Origin: an uncultured Gammaproteobacteria bacterium
GTDB lineage: Bacteria; Patescibacteriota; Patescibacteriia; UBA1558; UBA10009
NCBI GenBank assembly: GCA_964588165.1
Contig: CAZPMS010000003.1
Coordinates: forward strand, 74,031-138,030
Direction: 5' to 3'
DNA: 64,000 nucleotides
The position numbers and the translations under genes are program-made. Each line of letters opens with the position of its first letter. Position 1 is the stretch's first letter. Of the stretch, positions 4,885 to 64,000 are shown piece after piece. The notes under the pieces were generated by a model. That model did not search any database, was not told the DNA's origin, and was given only the letters and a program-made list of their open reading frames with translations.

Positions 4885-5265
4885 TTAACTAATGGTAAGT
4901 CTTTTTATCATTTCTTTTCTTAATTTATTTTTTGGCAGCATTTGGAAAACCATTTTTCTAAATAACTTATCTGGATTTTCTTTAAAAATTTTAGATAAAG
5001 GAGTTGTTTTTATACCACCCGGATACTGGGTATGCCTGTGATAAACTTTTTTTTCTAACTTTTTACCTGTAAATTTTAATTGGGAAATATTTTCTATAGC
5101 CACAAAATCACCCTGGTCTAAATGAGGTTGGTAATTAACCTTATGCTTGCCCATCAATAAAATGGCCACCTCCGAAGCTAATCTTCCGGGCACTTTGCCG
5201 GTTGCATCTATTTTATGTTTTTCTCTGCCCGCCGGATTGGAGGGACTGATATTTTCTGGAGTCAT
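4885..5265 (-). CDS. rplM: 50S ribosomal protein L13
   Basis: IDATGKVPGRLASEVAILLMGKHK...YPGG L13 signature. Confidence 0.9.
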   Translation of the reverse strand: MTPENISPSNPAGREKHKIDATGKVPGRLASEVAILLMGKHKVNYQPHLDQGDFVAIENISQLKFTGKKLEKKVYHRHTQYPGGIKTTPLSKIFKENPDKLFRKMVFQMLPKNKLRKEMIKRLTIS

Positions 5266-5270
5266 ATAAT

Positions 5271-5621
5271 TTAAACAAATTCAATTTGGGCCATTTTGGC
5301 ACCGTCGCCTTTCCTGGGTCCCATTTTAATTATTCTTAAATAACCGCCCTTTCTTTCTTTATATCTTGGCCCTAATACCTCAAAAGCTTTTTTAACGGCA
5401 TTCTTAATAGGCAACCTAGAAATTATTAAACGCCGGTTGGCCAAAGTGTCTTTTTTAGCCCTGGTAATAATTTTTTCTACAATTGGCTTAACTGTTTTAG
5501 CCTTGGCTTCAGTTGTTTTAATTTTTTCGTACAAAATTATTTGGCAAGCTAAACTGCCCAGCAAGGCTTTTCTGGGAGCTTTTTTTCTATCTAAAATTTT
5601 CTTTTTATTCCTGTGTCTCAT
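5271..5621 (-). CDS. rplQ: 50S ribosomal protein L17
   Basis: MRHRNKKKILDRKKAPRKALLGSLA... typical L17. Confidence 0.9.
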   Translation of the reverse strand: MRHRNKKKILDRKKAPRKALLGSLACQIILYEKIKTTEAKAKTVKPIVEKIITRAKKDTLANRRLIISRLPIKNAVKKAFEVLGPRYKERKGGYLRIIKMGPRKGDGAKMAQIEFV

Positions 5622-8949: not shown

Positions 8950-9121
8950 AAAAGGAATTCCACATACTCTTTGTCAGGTTTTTAACTAGAACTCAAAAAT
9001 ATGGGGAATTTTCCAATAATTTAAGGAAAATTAAATTGTTTTACTTATAAATATTACGTAAGGCTTATTTTACATTAAAGGCTAAATATGTCAAGGATAT
9101 TACTGTTAATATTTATTAAAC

Positions 9122-34518: not shown

Positions 34519-34740
34519 GCAAATATTGGAGGGCGAACCGGCCTGGTGGGCCAAAGGCCCACATTATGGCCGGCAGTGGCAATAAATTCCTGGAAAACCC
34601 GAGCTTACGCCAAGGTGATATATCTAGGTTTTACTGCCTTAAGCTCTCCTTTTTATTGAAAAAAATCGCTAATCGATTAATTTATAAGGTTAGCTCTCTC
34701 TCCCTCCAATATCTGCTCTTTTTTGCCTATTTTTCAAAGA
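34519..34740 (-). ncRNA. Candidate structured small RNA (about 220 nt to the closing stem; about 380 nt if it ends at the 34361-34502 hairpin) transcribed from its own promoter
   Basis: The 5' and 3' ends pair over 15 bp (gcagauauuggaggg with cccuccaauauuugc; the single G-U wobble only forms on the minus-strand transcript). Internal GC hairpin ccggcctggtgggccaaaggcccacattatggccgg (34539-34574). No coding potential on the minus strand. Confidence 0.3.
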
Positions 34741-34748
34741 ATATATTA

Positions 34749-34777
34749 GTATAGCATATATTTAATATCTTGTCAAG
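34749..34777 (-). promoter_or_regulatory. Predicted sigma70-like promoter (TTGACA-17-TATACT) driving the candidate ncRNA
   Basis: Minus-strand reading of 34749-34777: ttgacaagatattaaatatatgctatact. Nearly identical in layout to the promoter at 35424-35452. Confidence 0.35.
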
Positions 34778-39379: not shown

Positions 39380-39440
39380 ATAACTACTAGTTTACGAATT
39401 AATACTAATATACAAATTGGATATTCTCTATAATTATTAT

Positions 39441-39561
39441 TTTATTTTCTTAATTATACCTTTATTAGTCCCGATATAAAATCGGGACGTCGCGAGGTTA
39501 ATATTTATATTTTCCTTACGATGCCTCGCTCCGCATCAACTTCAACTAAATCACCGTCTTT
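39441..39561. repeat. Perfect direct repeat copy 1 (about 121 bp), spanning the 3' end and 3' flank of paralog A. Copy 2 is at 40921-41041.
   Basis: Copy 1 (39441-39561) and copy 2 (40921-41041) share the identical sequence tttattttcttaattatacctttattagtcccgatataaaatcgggacgtcgcgaggttaatatttatattttccttacgatgcctcgctccgcatcaacttcaactaaatcaccgtcttt. The flank contains the hairpin tcccgat-ataaa-atcggga. Confidence 0.9.
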
Positions 39562-40920
39562 TAAAATTTTTGTTACAGCTTTAACACCGATTATTGTCGG
39601 AATCTTCAGTTCTCTGGAAATTATAGAAGCATGAGATAATACCCCGCCCTCTTCGGTTATAACTGCCTTGACTTTTTTTAATACAGGCAAATAATTTGGC
39701 TGTGTTGAACTTGCCACTAAAATATTTCCAGTTTTAACTTTTTTAAAATCATCTGGGCCGTTTACAATCACAGCCGATCCGGAAGCCTTGCCTTTATATG
39801 CTGTTTGGCCTTTTATGATTTTATTATTTATAGTATAAAATTTAATCTTTTTTGCAATTTTTTTTGATTCCTTGCCTTCATAAATGGTGGATTGGCTAAA
39901 ATTAGTAATATAAATGAAAGATTCCTTTCTTCTCTTTAGTAAACTTTGATCCACTTTTTTATTTTCTTCTAATAAGCTTATTACCTCAAAGACTGTAAAA
40001 TTAAAAATTTCTTTATAATTTTTTATATTGATTCTCTTAGATATTTCCTTCAATAAATTCATTAAATAAATTCCCGAACGATAAAACTCCTCGCTGCGAA
40101 AACTTCTAAAATAAATGGATTCATTAATAGTTTTTATTAAATAGATTAAAGATTTTTTATTTTTGTATTTACCCAATATTTTATTAAATCTTTCTTTTTG
40201 CTTATTTTTCTCATTTTGCGCTTTGGAAAGACTTTTTTCAGGATCTAATTTAGCTTGTCTTTTTATTCTATTTAAATAATAGCTCCCATTATAATAATCG
40301 CCGTAGTAACCAGTGTCTTTAAGCCAAGAATAATTAAAAATATGCTTTTCTAAATCTTTCTCAATATTTTGATTATTCTTGAATTTAATAGAGATTTTTA
40401 ATAATGAAATTTTTTCATCTAATTCACGAGAATTTTTTACTGGTGACAAAATCGTGCTTAATTCATCGTTATTAACCTGCTTAATTATCTCGTCAGTTAT
40501 TTTATCCTCAACATAAAGAGGTAATAATGCGTAAGCGGCAAAATTTGTCATCCTACTGATAAAATCCTTAATTAGTCTTGATAGTTGTTTGTTAGAATAA
40601 CTACTATAATTTTTAATTTTATAAACTCCCTTTAAAAAAATAATTAATTGTTTATGCTCTTTATAACAATGTGATAGTTGCTGATAAAGGAAATTTGGAC
40701 TTTTTTTTAAATAATTCCATAATCTATTTTGCATTTCTTGCCAATCTTTTTTAGAAAAAACTACCTTATTATCAATCGCCCCAACATGCCTCATCCAGTA
40801 TTTAATATTTTCCATTTTTACTGATTGAATGGCAAAACTTCTAAAAACAACATGGACATACCATAAGCTCCTTTGTCTTGTATGTACATAATGCCAGTTT
40901 ATTTTAGACAGATCAATCAT
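39505..40920 (-). CDS. PEP-utilizing-enzyme swivel-domain protein (471 aa), tandem paralog A
   Basis: C-terminus ...EGGVLSHASIISRELKIPTIIGVKAVTKILKDGDLVEVDAERGIVRKI. The last 19 codons and the 64-bp 3' flank are identical to paralog B. Confidence 0.65.
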   Translation of the reverse strand: MIDLSKINWHYVHTRQRSLWYVHVVFRSFAIQSVKMENIKYWMRHVGAIDNKVVFSKKDWQEMQNRLWNYLKKSPNFLYQQLSHCYKEHKQLIIFLKGVYKIKNYSSYSNKQLSRLIKDFISRMTNFAAYALLPLYVEDKITDEIIKQVNNDELSTILSPVKNSRELDEKISLLKISIKFKNNQNIEKDLEKHIFNYSWLKDTGYYGDYYNGSYYLNRIKRQAKLDPEKSLSKAQNEKNKQKERFNKILGKYKNKKSLIYLIKTINESIYFRSFRSEEFYRSGIYLMNLLKEISKRINIKNYKEIFNFTVFEVISLLEENKKVDQSLLKRRKESFIYITNFSQSTIYEGKESKKIAKKIKFYTINNKIIKGQTAYKGKASGSAVIVNGPDDFKKVKTGNILVASSTQPNYLPVLKKVKAVITEEGGVLSHASIISRELKIPTIIGVKAVTKILKDGDLVEVDAERGIVRKI

Positions 40921-41041
40921 TTTATTTTCTTAATTATACCTTTATTAGTCCCGATATAAAATCGGGACGTCGCGAGGTTAATATTTATATTTTCCTTACG
41001 ATGCCTCGCTCCGCATCAACTTCAACTAAATCACCGTCTTT
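40921..41041. repeat. Perfect direct repeat copy 2 (see 39441-39561)
   Basis: Identical to 39441-39561 on direct reading of both lines. Confidence 0.9.
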
Positions 41042-42436
41042 GAAAACTTTGGTGGCAACTAAAGTATTTACAACACAAGGCTTGCCTAATTCTCTGGAAA
41101 CTATAGCAGCATGGCAAGTAATGCCACCAACTTCCGTAACCACAGCCACTGATTTTTTCATAGCGGTAACAAAATCAACAGATGTAGAGGGAACCACTAA
41201 CACTTCGCCATCTTTCATTTTAGATAATTCAGAGATGCTGCTTATTACTCTGGCCTTGCCTTTAGCTTTACCAGGAGAAGCACCTAAGCCGCAAAGTTCT
41301 TTTTTATTACCTAATGATACTTTTGGCTTATCTTTTAAACATTCTTGATTAATCTTAGAGTGCAAATTTTTAGCCTGCTTGCCGGTGATTATCTTTTGTT
41401 TGTCTAAATTTATAACTTGAACAGCAAACGACTGCCTTTCTTTAATAATTTTTTTAAAATTACTATTACTGATTTTACCTACAAGGCCTTTCCTGATTTC
41501 CTGGGGTGTTAAGAATTTAAGCTCACTAAAAGTAACTTTAAATTCCTCAGCGATTCTTTCATAAATAGGCTTGGCTTTATGAACAATATAACTGGTATGC
41601 AAATCCACTCTGGTTCTGATTAAAGTAAAATATCTTAACATATTAATATCTTTAAGTAATCTACCTGAAAGGCTAAGCTCTTTTATGGTTTTTTTATTTA
41701 ATAACTTTGTCTTATTTGAATAATTTTTTATGTCAGACATCCTTTTTTTAATATCTTTAGCCTTTAGTTCTTGGTTTAGTCTAAACATTAGATCTTCCAT
41801 TTCCCACGGTTCATTGTCATACCATACAGGAATCCATTCAAATTTCTTAAGATGTTTTTTGAATATTGGTTTTATATCATCAATTAAGCCACCTTTAAAC
41901 TTGCTGACAATTTCTAAAAAATTAAGCTCTTCTTTTTGCGTTTCTAAAAATTCCCAAGGCGTGGTTACAGCAATCAATTTGTTAGTAAACTGCTCTTCCT
42001 TTCTTTGTTTCTTTAAAATATCTTTAAACTTTTTACTAATTCTTTCTAAATATATTTCATCAATGGCATGATTAATATCACCAATTGGTTCAGCTAAAAA
42101 CAATAGGTTCCAATATTTGTTAAATGATTTTAAAAGTTTTGCCCGATTAATATTTTTGATATCGGCTAAATTATTATTAAGAAATTTATTAAGATTTCTA
42201 AAATTCTTTTCATGATTTTGGCCGTATCTTTTGATATAATATGGATCTTTATCAATTCTAGTCCACCAAATTTTATGCATCCTCTTATAATCAGAAGTAT
42301 AAGTATAATAATGAGCCAATAAATCCTTATGTACTCTAATTACTCTCTTAAAAACCACTTCTCGCCTGTCCCAATAATAAAGGCTGTAATGAAGTATGCT
42401 GATAGACCATGATCCAAACTTATGATATTTTGACAT
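40985..42436 (-). CDS. PEP-utilizing-enzyme swivel-domain protein (483 aa), tandem paralog B
   Basis: C-terminus ...GGITCHAAIVSRELGKPCVVNTLVATKVFKDGDLVEVDAERGIVRKI. Confidence 0.65.
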   Translation of the reverse strand: MSKYHKFGSWSISILHYSLYYWDRREVVFKRVIRVHKDLLAHYYTYTSDYKRMHKIWWTRIDKDPYYIKRYGQNHEKNFRNLNKFLNNNLADIKNINRAKLLKSFNKYWNLLFLAEPIGDINHAIDEIYLERISKKFKDILKKQRKEEQFTNKLIAVTTPWEFLETQKEELNFLEIVSKFKGGLIDDIKPIFKKHLKKFEWIPVWYDNEPWEMEDLMFRLNQELKAKDIKKRMSDIKNYSNKTKLLNKKTIKELSLSGRLLKDINMLRYFTLIRTRVDLHTSYIVHKAKPIYERIAEEFKVTFSELKFLTPQEIRKGLVGKISNSNFKKIIKERQSFAVQVINLDKQKIITGKQAKNLHSKINQECLKDKPKVSLGNKKELCGLGASPGKAKGKARVISSISELSKMKDGEVLVVPSTSVDFVTAMKKSVAVVTEVGGITCHAAIVSRELGKPCVVNTLVATKVFKDGDLVEVDAERGIVRKI

Positions 42437-60092: not shown

Positions 60093-60211
60093 AAGTTAGT
60101 AAATTATAGCAGTTTAAAGGCTAAATTGTCAAAGAAATTAGCTATCTTGACAAAATATTCAATATATGCTATACTAATCTATTAAGTTCTTCACAAAACC
60201 CGGAGGAAGTG

Positions 60212-61261: not shown

Positions 61262-61753
61262 CTATTTTTTCTGTTTATAATATAAAACTTCAATGGCTCT
61301 AAGATTATCAGTTGGCTCGTCATTAGTAACTGATTCTATGATTTTATTTTCTTCAGTATCTTCAAATACTATAGTCCATTTGCCTTTATTTTTATTAAAT
61401 ATGCAATCTGGGAAAAGCATATGATGATGCCAATGAATATTTTGTTTATTAAAACTTTTAGCTTTTTCAAGTATTATCTTGATATTTTTATCAGTTATTT
61501 CTAATTCTTTCTCTTCAACTATTTTATCCCCGTGAAGTAATTGTACTAATTCCTTCCCTTCTTTCATATACCTTTTATCAGAATAAACAACAAATACCTC
61601 ATCATCTATTTCATTTTCTAAAATAAAAGCCTGTTTATCTTTATTCTTATTATACATGCAGTCAGGAGTCAGCATATGGAAATGCCACCTTTTACCCGAT
61701 GTATGTATTTGCTTGGCAATTGATATTAATTCCTTAATTGATATTTCTTCCAT
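61262..61753 (-). CDS. Hypothetical protein with two tandem copies of a His-rich domain (WHFHMLTPDCMYNKNK / WHHHMLFPDCIFNKNK)
   Basis: Internal duplication visible in the protein; no recognised family. Confidence 0.4.
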   Translation of the reverse strand: MEEISIKELISIAKQIHTSGKRWHFHMLTPDCMYNKNKDKQAFILENEIDDEVFVVYSDKRYMKEGKELVQLLHGDKIVEEKELEITDKNIKIILEKAKSFNKQNIHWHHHMLFPDCIFNKNKGKWTIVFEDTEENKIIESVTNDEPTDNLRAIEVLYYKQKK

Positions 61754-61770: not shown

Positions 61771-63480
61771 TTAATCCAACTTCTTAATATCAATAAGTGA
61801 TAATTGTATCTCTTTACTGCCATTCCATTCGTTAACACCGATTTCACACACGGCATCAATTTTATCACCGGGATTTAATTGGTCGCAGACTTCACCAAAG
61901 CCAAAGCAGATAATCTTTTTTTGCTCTGCCCCCTGCTTTACAATAAGCTTTAAATGATTTCCCTTAGCACCTACAGTTTCACTTAAACCTACTTCCAAAT
62001 TTTTTATTAAAAACCTGGGTTGGTAATTACCCATGCCAAATGGCCTAAACTGTTCTAAAATTTCTATAAGTTCCCAACCGGCTTCCTTTAGGCTAATCTC
62101 TTTATCTATGGTAAGCGAAGGGACTAAATCAGCTTTTTTTAATTTTTTATTGCCATATTCTATAAATTTCTGCTTAAACTCATCAAACTTATCTTTAGTT
62201 ATACTAAAACCAGCTGCGCCTTTATGACCGCCGTATTTTATAAAATAATCGGAAAAATCATTTAAAGATTCAATTAAATTAAAGCCACTAATGCTACGGC
62301 CGGATCCAACATATCTGCTGCCATCAAAACTTAAAGCAATAGCTGGTTTGGCATATTCTTGAGTTATTTTTCCAGCCACTAAACCAATAACTCCTGGGTT
62401 CCAATCTTCACCCCAGGCAAATAAAACTTTATTATCTTTCTGCTTTTCAACTTGAATTTTAGCTTCATTAACCAGTTTTTCAGTTAATGATTGGCGATCT
62501 ATATTACTTTTATAAAGTTGGCTGGCTATAGTAATGGCTTCTTCTATATTTTCTGTGGTCAGTAATTGGTAGGCGTTATTGGCGTGGGCCATCCTGCCGG
62601 CCGCATTAATCCGTGGGGCAATCTGCCAGCCAATGGTTTTGGCATCAATTTTTTCTGTATTTATAGCGCCAACTTCAAATAATTTCTGCAGTCCTAAATT
62701 TTTAGTTTTAGCCAAGACAATAATGCCATGCTTAACTAAAGTTCTATTTTCACCAATTAAAGGAACCATGTCGGCTACGGTACTTATGGCCACTAAATCC
62801 AGCAACCATTTTTCAAAAACATCCTTTTCTTCGTCCCTTGTCCCTGATCTCTGATCCCTAATTATTGCTTGGGCCAATTTAAAAGCTACTCCCCCGCCAG
62901 CCAAATCATGAAAAGGATATTTTTTATCTAACCGTGGGTGGATAATGGCTACCGCTTTTGGCAAATCATCCGGAATATGGTGATGGTCGGTGATTACTAC
63001 ATCTATTCTCATTTCATTTGCAATATCCACTTCTTCTTTATTGCTGATTCCACAATCAACGGTAATAATTAAATTAACTTTTTTTTCTCCAAATTCTTTA
63101 ATAACTTTACTGTTAAGGCCATAACCTTCTTTTTCTCTGTCTGGCAGATAAGTTTCAAAATCAAGGCCTATTTTATTAAAGACCTTGGCTAAAATGGCTG
63201 AACCACAAACTCCGTCGGCATCATAGTCGCCATAGATAATTACTTTTTCATTTTTTTCTTTAGATTGATAAATTCTTTTAACTGCCTTTTTCATATCAGT
63301 GAACAAAAAAGGATCATGAATATCCTGCGAATAATCGGGATGTAAAAACTCGTCAATTTGATCTTGAGAAGTTAAACCTCTATCAAATAAAAGTTGTAAA
63401 GCAGCCGGATTTACCTCCGGGAATTGTTTTATTTTATCATCTGTTAATGGCTCTTTTACCAGCCATTTATATTTGTTCAT
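61771..63480 (-). CDS. recJ: Single-stranded-DNA-specific exonuclease RecJ
   Basis: DHH motifs (IIYGDYDADGVCG, VITDHHH), DHHA1 domain and C-terminal OB-fold. Confidence 0.9.
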   Translation of the reverse strand: MNKYKWLVKEPLTDDKIKQFPEVNPAALQLLFDRGLTSQDQIDEFLHPDYSQDIHDPFLFTDMKKAVKRIYQSKEKNEKVIIYGDYDADGVCGSAILAKVFNKIGLDFETYLPDREKEGYGLNSKVIKEFGEKKVNLIITVDCGISNKEEVDIANEMRIDVVITDHHHIPDDLPKAVAIIHPRLDKKYPFHDLAGGGVAFKLAQAIIRDQRSGTRDEEKDVFEKWLLDLVAISTVADMVPLIGENRTLVKHGIIVLAKTKNLGLQKLFEVGAINTEKIDAKTIGWQIAPRINAAGRMAHANNAYQLLTTENIEEAITIASQLYKSNIDRQSLTEKLVNEAKIQVEKQKDNKVLFAWGEDWNPGVIGLVAGKITQEYAKPAIALSFDGSRYVGSGRSISGFNLIESLNDFSDYFIKYGGHKGAAGFSITKDKFDEFKQKFIEYGNKKLKKADLVPSLTIDKEISLKEAGWELIEILEQFRPFGMGNYQPRFLIKNLEVGLSETVGAKGNHLKLIVKQGAEQKKIICFGFGEVCDQLNPGDKIDAVCEIGVNEWNGSKEIQLSLIDIKKLD

Positions 63481-63483
63481 ATT

Positions 63484-63770
63484 TATTCTAAATAATCAAT
63501 ATTAATAATTTCTTTCCCTGTATTGTGATGATTATGATAAGAAGAATAAAGCCAATCAATCGGATCATCAACTATTCTATGTTTAGCTGCGTTTTGATCA
63601 ATGTATTCCAGTTTATTGAATAGTTCTTCATCTGAACGGATTATTCTATCGTGGAATGATTTTTGCCAAACCGGTTTGCCAAGAATAAATTTCTCGGCTA
63701 CGTGGGGTGATTGGTTGAATTTCTCAGCTTCGTTGAGGAGCGCCCTCCTGTACTTATTGGCAAATCTACC
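63484..63770 (-). pseudogene. Remnant of an IS200/RAYT-family (Y1 HUH) transposase: C-terminal half only
   Basis: Own translation of the minus strand: ...ANKYRRALLNEAEKFNQSPHVAEKFILGKPVWQKSFHDRIIRSDEELFNKLEYIDQNAAKHRIVDDPIDWLYSSYHNHHN. It matches the RayT C-terminal pattern WQxRFxxHxIRxEEx...YIxxNPVKxGLVxxxxxWxWSS. No HuH N-terminal half is present; its expected position is occupied by the recJ-like duplicate. Confidence 0.5.
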
Positions 63771-64000
63771 TCTTCTTTATTACTGATTCCACAATCAACG
63801 GTAATAATTAAATTAACTTTTTTTTCTGCGAATTCTTTAATAATTTTACTATTAAGGCCATAGCCTTCTTTTTCCCTATCTGGTAAATAGGTTTCAAAAT
63901 CAAGGCCAATTTCTTTAAAAACCTTTGCTAAAATAGCTGAGCCACAAACTCCATCGGCATCATAATCACCATAAATAATTACTTTCTCATTTTTCTCTTT
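63765..64000. repeat. About 90%-identical duplicate of recJ codons about 70-150 (copy of 63030-63270), minus-strand frame open, runs off the window end
   Basis: Direct comparison of the 63031-63270 and 63765-64000 lines (cttctttattgctgattccacaatcaacggtaataattaaattaac... against ctcttctttattactgattccacaatcaacggtaataattaaattaac...). Translates to ...VIIYGDYDADGVCGSAILAKVF..., then diverges and stops at about 63690. Confidence 0.6.

Follow-up and report, generated by a model that had tools for sequence, protein, structure and literature searches.

A partial, probably hybrid, tandem duplication of tnpA and recJ beside an intact RAYT gene in an uncultured Patescibacteria genome

Why should the gene recJ be preceded by what looks like half a transposase, with a second piece of recJ standing where the other half ought to be? 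The locus lies at the right-hand end of a 64,000-nt stretch of contig CAZPMS010000003.1 (positions 74,031 to 138,030 of the forward strand; the whole stretch is referred to here as the window), which belongs to an uncultured, Komeilibacteria-like genome of the Patescibacteria (Candidate Phyla Radiation, CPR). A sequence-only reading of the window had taken the arrangement for the remnant of a transposase whose N-terminal half had been replaced by recJ. The feature is instead a partial tandem duplication, probably a hybrid one, beside an intact gene, tnpA, for a REP-associated tyrosine transposase (RAYT; REP, repetitive extragenic palindrome), and it coexists with a single-copy allele; the supposed remnant, tnpA', is a second copy of the 3' part of that intact gene.

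Coordinates given here are those of the window, and recJ, tnpA' and the truncated second recJ (recJ') all lie on its minus strand. The sequence was extended past base 64000 with a 167-kb scaffold, L001, which matches the window over 12,230 nt with 0 mismatches; scans for REPs and for copy number covered 73.5 kb. The components of the locus are as follows.

61771..63480, minus strand: intact recJ, 569 aa, with DHH, DHHA1 and RecJ_OB domains and the DHH motif at residues 165–167
63025..63480, minus strand: copy B, the recJ part of the repeat, codons 1–152 of the intact gene, aligned to copy A
63483..63773, minus strand: tnpA', start-less RAYT codons about 80–195, stop codon included, with 21 codons of the variable region missing
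63698..63763, minus strand: out-of-frame tail of recJ', 21 codons and a stop codon read from tnpA' DNA
63756..63766, minus strand: new joint of recJ' codon 152 with RAYT codon about 82, placed by alignment of both copies and the intact gene
63764..64000, minus strand: copy A, recJ part, codons 74–152 of recJ', with the gene start 219 bp past the window end
L001 8671–9258 (230 bp past the window end): intact tnpA, 195 aa, 3 bases upstream of recJ'

The tandem tnpA–recJ unit is present twice in the duplicated haplotype, here called D (L001–L003; samples SAMN11854489, SAMN10231903 and JGI 3300009106). A complete transposase beyond base 64000 had been named by the sequence-only reading as evidence against it, and the extended contig does show one, of 195 aa, directly upstream of recJ'; the layout runs from this intact tnpA through recJ' (recJ codons 1–152; 173 aa with its tail) and across the junction into tnpA' (codons about 82–195, no start) and the intact 569-aa recJ; the order of the three genes, tnpA, recJ' and recJ, holds for contigs of three samples, taken from two data sources. 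The repeat unit of 739–743 bp is strictly tandem, extending from tnpA codon about 82 to recJ codon 152, and only its right-hand 1.3 copies fall within the window. What had been described as a spacer of about 500 bp between two recJ copies is therefore the other half of this unit, with its partner beyond base 64000. The recJ copy at the window edge had itself been correctly seen: put at about 90% identity (63030–63270 against 63765–64000), it is 88% identical over 244 ungapped nt (63018–63261 against 63757–64000; recJ codons about 74–154), and this direct repeat is the largest in the window.

Intact recJ has the full RecJ architecture and scores above threshold on TIGR00644 (E=2e-169, 564 bits, cut-off 397); exactly the same protein is encoded on L001 and on contigs from two other samples. 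The truncated copy comprises 173 aa in all, with its first 73 codons beyond base 64000. Its 152 recJ-homologous codons contain neither stops nor frameshifts, and its coupling to the upstream stop codon is as tight as that of recJ. The frame of recJ' does run on into tnpA', as had been proposed, but the out-of-frame run comprises 21 rather than about 25 codons, with its stop at 63698. Because recJ' ends 13 residues short of the DHH motif and covers less than half of the DHH profile (positions 1–57 of 125 only), it is predicted to be incapable of acting as a nuclease. On TIGR00644 it reaches 146 bits, under the cut-off, and it lacks both the DHH motif and DHHA1; it is therefore not a RecJ.

The fragment tnpA' had been rightly recognised (as 63484–63770) as the C-terminal half of a RAYT/IS200-type transposase. 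It matches positions 101–146 of 146 of the NCBIfam model NF047646 (E=1.2e-11, 44.7 bits, under the cut-off) and contains the Tyr half only, with no HUH half and no start codon (no open reading frame is listed in its frame). It is 74% identical to residues 80–194 of intact tnpA (tblastn, E=2e-52) and, from codon 118 on, identical to the C-terminus of P0083, a RAYT of the single-copy haplotype described below; it ends 2 nt ahead of the recJ ATG. Its translation from 63773 to 63486 is free of stops (...GRFANKY...VWQKSFHDRIIRSDEELFNKLEYIDQNAAKHRIV...), with the frame open for 97 codons, and its variable region reads ...KYRRALLNEAEKFNQSPHV...

Intact tnpA scores 111 bits on NF047646, the RAYT equivalog model (cut-off 80), and 28 bits on the IS200 model NF033573, below the cut-off of 55. 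A search with PF01797, which had been suggested as a check, detects the intact gene with 44 bits, while tnpA' alone falls short of detection. By sequence, the best solved structure is E. coli TnpA_REP (4er8), with tnpA residues H59-V-H61 aligned to its HUH motif and Y155 to its chain residue 115. The product is an intact RAYT-type Y1/HUH transposase with both the HUH motif and the catalytic Tyr present. One intact RAYT copy and the fragment tnpA' are found within the 73.5 kb.

The junction at which recJ' passes into tnpA' lies in a 12-nt microhomology, GAT(A)TTGCNAAT, which matches at 10/12 positions with one gap and is imperfect in both parents. It bears what would be the signature of illegitimate, microhomology-guided joining and not of transposition; neither IS ends nor a target duplication were found at the locus. 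The sequence-only reading had allowed for a scar of either kind, and of these illegitimate recombination stands and transposition does not.

Accurate as that earlier description was, it missed that the divergence of the two copies is too great, and too much like that of genes, for a simple local duplication. Their recJ parts are identical at 392/456 nt and 136/152 aa (86% and 89%), leaving 64 base and 16 amino acid differences; the base differences fall 15/4/45 by codon position (chi-square P=7e-10), with dN 0.067, dS 0.71 and dN/dS about 0.09. In the tnpA part the pattern is no different (dN 0.03, dS 0.21). When the 16 amino acid differences were polarised with 10 outgroup RecJ sequences, 8 proved to be derived in recJ' and 7 in recJ, with 1 ambiguous. 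In a simulation of 5000 runs, with recJ' drifting neutrally for half of the divergence, about 45 amino acid changes were expected and a stop codon arose in 90% of runs; 0/5000 runs gave nine or fewer changes. Simple in-place duplication with neutral decay was rejected on the low dN/dS, the 8:7 symmetry, the lack of stops and the outcome of these runs. Since the differences are mostly synonymous and the amino acid changes split almost evenly, the divergence would predate the truncation: we infer that both copies evolved within complete working genes, that the truncating junction formed late by comparison with that divergence, and that the source of the extra copy was a diverged tnpA–recJ module, not copying in place.

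Four contigs from other samples (L011–L014; SAMN10231923, SAMN11854485, SAMN11854493 and JGI 3300008625) carry a repeat-free haplotype, S, in which tnpA (194 aa) is followed directly by recJ, with neighbours as in D; all D and S contigs are metagenome assemblies. S is identical to D up to L001 9084 and continues with copy B from L001 9828, so that it equals D minus 743 bp (L001 9085–9827), and the flanks are about 99.9% identical. Three further features bear on this breakpoint.

63655..63717, minus strand: 63-nt perfectly identical run (L001 9764–9826 equals 9021–9083), the S/D crossover interval
63678..63701, minus strand: REP-like element, a GTAG foot and the hairpin CCGAGAA-attta-TTCTTGG, inside the RAYT frame
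63732..63751, minus strand: G+C-rich hairpin AGGAG-ggcg-CTCCT, in the tnpA' variable region only, the sequence of intact tnpA being unrelated there

The crossover interval is the longest identical run between the copies, and the REP-like hairpin sits in the middle of it. The S contigs have the form expected from a crossover between the copies, which bears out the suggestion that the repeats could drive deletion; inversion, suggested along with it, falls away, as direct repeats cannot invert. D and S are separate haplotypes and not alternative assembly paths, because they differ both in a linked base and in the state of pfkB. At recJ nt 848, T is found in 3/3 D contigs and C in the 3/3 S contigs covering it, giving I283T with Thr derived; recJ is otherwise the same, being identical among L001–L003 and differing in the S contigs by this one base. 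The gene pfkB is split in S only (L011 1689–2675, L012 1662–2656) and is intact in D and in outgroups. The repeats appear to have recombined, or an extra unit to have been inserted, as expected for direct repeats.

The explanation that we favour, and hold to be probable though well short of certain, is a hybrid partial duplication in which two diverged modules were joined by one illegitimate joint, with later deletion from D to S. The copies A and B would be diverged versions of the tnpA–recJ module, each having evolved as a working gene, and in a single illegitimate event codon 152 of recJ-A would have been ligated to codon 82 of tnpA-B at the microhomology. The most economical route would be homology-facilitated illegitimate recombination (HFIR) with DNA from a related lineage: one end would be settled by homologous exchange in the flank and the other at the microhomology, yielding D in one step as a hybrid partial merodiploid. 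S would then have arisen, in the direction that we favour, through deletion between the direct repeats by crossover in the 63-nt run, and its tnpA would be chimeric but intact, with an A-type N-terminus and a B-type C-terminus. On this account recJ' and tnpA' would be non-functional by-products, with recJ and tnpA intact in both haplotypes.

Several points weigh against the hybrid duplication. Divergence is uneven, at 6% in the tnpA part versus 14% in the recJ part (Fisher P=0.001), with third-position differences at 8/77 and 45/152 respectively (P=0.0009); taken with the 63-nt run, this has to be accounted for separately, be it by conversion of one copy by the other or by constraint acting on the REP-like hairpin. 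No genome in the collections searched has a module purely of type A or purely of type B, so that the donor is hypothetical, and only with a reference lineage would the homologous anchor of the proposed HFIR be visible. The sequences themselves would seem to give no direction, D to S and S to D being formally equivalent, and both forms are known from assembled contigs, not reads. As to the searches for a parent, a protein search with recJ' (1–152) returned nothing above 62% identity apart from recJ' itself; the next-best full RecJ, among the 8,000 most word-similar candidates from 5.8 billion clusters, is 70% identical and belongs to Komeilibacteria/Patescibacteria. The 90% clusters of recJ and tnpA hold D and S members only, the best RecJ match among GTDB representative genomes is 41%, and a RAYT-profile scan of metagenome_contigs gave a best match of 55%. 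An exact 31-mer scan of the latter collection gave 0 matches, which means little because it lacks even the JGI sample holding L002.

Reversing the order of events gives a reading that we think unlikely, although it deserves some weight. If S were ancestral, a homeologous fragment of about 743 nt, spanning tnpA codon 82 to recJ codon 152 and either made circular at the microhomology or released from a tandem duplication that the donor lineage carried, would have entered the resident tnpA through one Campbell-type crossover in the 63-nt run to give D. This is formally identical to the observed structure, D being S plus L001 9085–9827; the extra segment holds the junction internally, its version of the tnpA variable part is not that of the resident gene, and the closest relatives have neither the duplication nor tnpA. 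It requires, however, an unusual 743-nt circle or two lineage-level steps, as well as the same unsampled donor; and because S elsewhere carries derived states (I283T and the split pfkB), S as sampled is not the ancestor. We consider it improbable that the repeat arose in place, by microhomology slippage, and then diverged over a long period with recJ' (perhaps as a recJ'–tnpA' product) functional. Classically, such an event is recognised by copies in tandem with microhomology at their junction, as here; recJ' has a start-stop coupling like that of recJ, and the long open frame of tnpA' would suit a product; yet recJ' ends before the DHH motif, tnpA' is without start codon or HUH half, and the rejection of neutral decay means that an unproven function of truncated products would be required. 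The two parts of one unit also differ in divergence, and the collections offer no other truncated recJ' homologue of more than 62% identity, the other short DHH genes checked being split recJ. Three of these, P0051, P0066 and P0038, had been candidates for a recurrent truncated recJ' and were set aside as split or frameshifted recJ genes, not duplications.

The transposase itself could have made the rearrangement, or could resolve it, at its REP-like hairpin by way of a 743-nt circle in the 'peel and paste' style of IS200/IS605, but this we hold to be quite improbable. The S/D crossover interval is centred on the GTAG-footed hairpin, the RAYT is intact with HUH and Tyr, the variable, repeat-rich stretch of tnpA between HUH and Tyr folds strongly as single-stranded DNA (z=-4.8), and in relatives a similar cassette has been copied outside the gene. 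Against this, 63 nt of identity suffice for ordinary homologous recombination, the recJ–tnpA junction carries no hairpin, the divergence of the copies is left unexplained, and catalysis is a prediction from sequence. More doubtful still is the further proposal that the RAYT switches the locus between D and S by cutting and religating at its own GTAG hairpin, so that a 743-nt single-stranded circle is reversibly released and reinserted; the circle would carry an alternative RAYT C-terminus together with the recJ leader. An assembly artefact, whether a chimeric join of reads from two strains or S as a collapsed form of D, is hardly credible. The contigs are metagenome-assembled, and a shared run of 63 nt can confuse de Bruijn graphs; but 5 contigs, drawn from JGI and ENA data and from at least 3 samples, share the identical D junction, the protein collection contains no orphan A-type recJ sequences, and D and S differ by a linked base and by their pfkB state. 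As the junction sequences share no long k-mer, an artefact would need chimeric reads to exist.

Both aspects of the locus belong to known kinds: the duplication is a scar of illegitimate recombination or of merodiploid formation, and the transposase is a RAYT carrying REPs within its gene. What would be unusual is the involvement of two diverged lineages. Tandem duplications are unstable in bacteria and are lost by recombination between the copies. Here too there is a single-copy derivative with its breakpoint in the longest identical stretch, although, unlike in classical tandem duplications, the copies are 6–14% diverged, and their loss, for which a single 63-nt run is needed, leaves tnpA chimeric. 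HFIR has been worked on in Acinetobacter and pneumococcus. As in HFIR and merodiploids, the present locus has one novel joint at a short microhomology beside homologous DNA and a partial duplication with foreign homeologous sequence; natural transformation is assumed here, and donor and anchor are hypothetical. Merodiploids generated by transformation are described in PMC3784515. Pneumococcal merodiploids arise between long repeats such as IS elements, whereas the joint here is at microhomology.

With E. coli RAYT/TnpA_REP (YafM, PDB 4ER8), tnpA has in common the HUH motif, a conserved W and the catalytic Tyr. RAYT features include a single copy per genome and a housekeeping-like setting (PMC5581495); the one intact tnpA copy beside the fragment in 73.5 kb, and its housekeeping-like setting, would be in keeping with these. 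A variable repeat insert with an in-frame REP between HUH and Tyr is reported to be unique to TnpA_REP subclass 2.4 (PMC6006769), the subclass of Quentin et al. (2018) that corresponds to RAYT group 4 of Bertels et al. (2017); tnpA shares a variable repeat insert with in-frame GTAG-footed hairpins, a likeness by described feature and not by phylogeny. Unlike RAYTs, tnpA has no flanking REPs and no dispersed REP family in 73.5 kb, and lies squeezed in after the ancestral promoter of recJ and before the start codon of that gene, in a Patescibacteria (CPR) host. With IS200/IS605 TnpA it shares the Y1/HUH fold family represented by PF01797; unlike these, it falls under the IS200 equivalog cut-off, is not multicopy and has no terminal hairpins except a terminator that is also kept in relatives without tnpA. 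There is no room for an IS right end, because recJ or recJ' begins 2–3 nt past the tnpA stop codon. An IS200/IS605 element was rejected for the locus on the absence of subterminal-hairpin ends and of multiple copies and on the score below the IS200 threshold.

REP palindromes, proposed by the sequence-only reading as something to look for across the genome, were searched for over the 73.5 kb: none is dispersed, with REP-like hairpins only inside tnpA and neither GT[AG]G-footed hairpins outside it nor short multicopy palindromes. The REP-like element at 63678..63701 is single copy in the window, where none is expected by chance. Three hairpins lie in L001 8954–9060, two of them with the GTAG/CTAC foot that is a hallmark of REPs, and CPR homologues have perfect hairpins at the equivalent site, with stems of 6–12 bp (mostly at least 8) and in many cases a GTAG foot. 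Rfam gave no significant match in the locus. In the relatives L025, L026 and L034 the hairpin cassette also occurs outside the RAYT gene: in L025 as a 100-nt, 100%-identical cassette (1705–1804 vs 2190–2289) that has been inserted, with the frame kept, into the 3' end of the gene upstream, in L026 at 4939–5272, and in L034 at 61–161 vs 521–603 with tandem GCGTAGGCGAGGGatttaCCCTCGCC units. In three distant RAYT homologues (L038, L041 and L048) direct repeats of 88–92% identity flank RAYT-like genes or lie inside them, as in L041 at 540–860 vs 1194–1517, which hints that local duplications at RAYT-like loci may be common.

The closest relatives (66–69% RecJ identity) keep the order pfkB – TSP3 – recJ without tnpA, followed by RNase H wherever the contig reaches far enough. 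A conserved terminator hairpin and a -10-like sequence lie ahead of recJ in relatives without tnpA and ahead of tnpA here; the insertion of tnpA therefore took place downstream of the recJ promoter and ahead of the start codon of recJ, and tnpA now heads the recJ operon. An IS left end was considered for the hairpin upstream of tnpA and rejected, as the same terminator precedes recJ in relatives that lack tnpA. Nor is tnpA a conserved partner of recJ, given that the closest relatives are syntenic without it and that its homologues precede many housekeeping genes. In a promoter and terminator scan, promoter-like sites were no higher than the shuffle expectation. The RAYT homologues examined (L015–L017 and L022–L039, on other CPR contigs) lie nearly all directly upstream of a co-directional housekeeping gene, mostly overlapping it or within about 20 nt, with a few 70–125 nt off; judged by sequence, the downstream genes include recO, aspS, topA, a PPDK-N-like gene, an inositol monophosphatase and a thymidylyltransferase.

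Other features were noted in the same DNA. Between recJ and RNase H, a 163-aa open reading frame (61262–61753, minus strand) contains two internal repeats of about 80 aa, each carrying W-H-x-H-M-L-x-P-D-C...N-K-N-K; it matches no Pfam family and is not found at this position in the relatives L019 and L020. At 39436–42436 (minus strand) there are two tandem paralogues of 471 and 483 aa with PEP-utilising-enzyme-like C-termini, the 3' ends of which are 95% identical over 145 nt (39436–39580 vs 40916–41060) while the remainder is much more diverged, a pattern that suggests local gene conversion between them. Two 38-nt promoter-like sequences (TTGACA, 17 nt, TATACT) at 34740–34777 and 60146–60183 are 92% identical and inverted in orientation. 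About 6 kb past the window end (L001 1727–3479), an IS1595-family DDE transposase gene adjoins a P63C-domain gene.

The main value of these results is corrective: a 'transposase remnant fused to recJ' is the edge-of-window view of a tandem partial duplication. That duplication is a clean natural case of a homeologous partial duplication in uncultured Patescibacteria, with its single-copy counterpart in other samples, and offers indirect evidence that the reduced genomes of this group may exchange and recombine DNA between diverged lineages. For the transposase family, a RAYT with REP hairpins in its own gene leads housekeeping operons in CPR bacteria, recJ here and recO, topA and aspS elsewhere, and the position of the crossover on the intragenic hairpin makes a RAYT-dependent mechanism testable. 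If the switch proposed above were true, it would give a RAYT of a CPR bacterium that lacks dispersed REPs its first natural substrate, along with a role in the cell.

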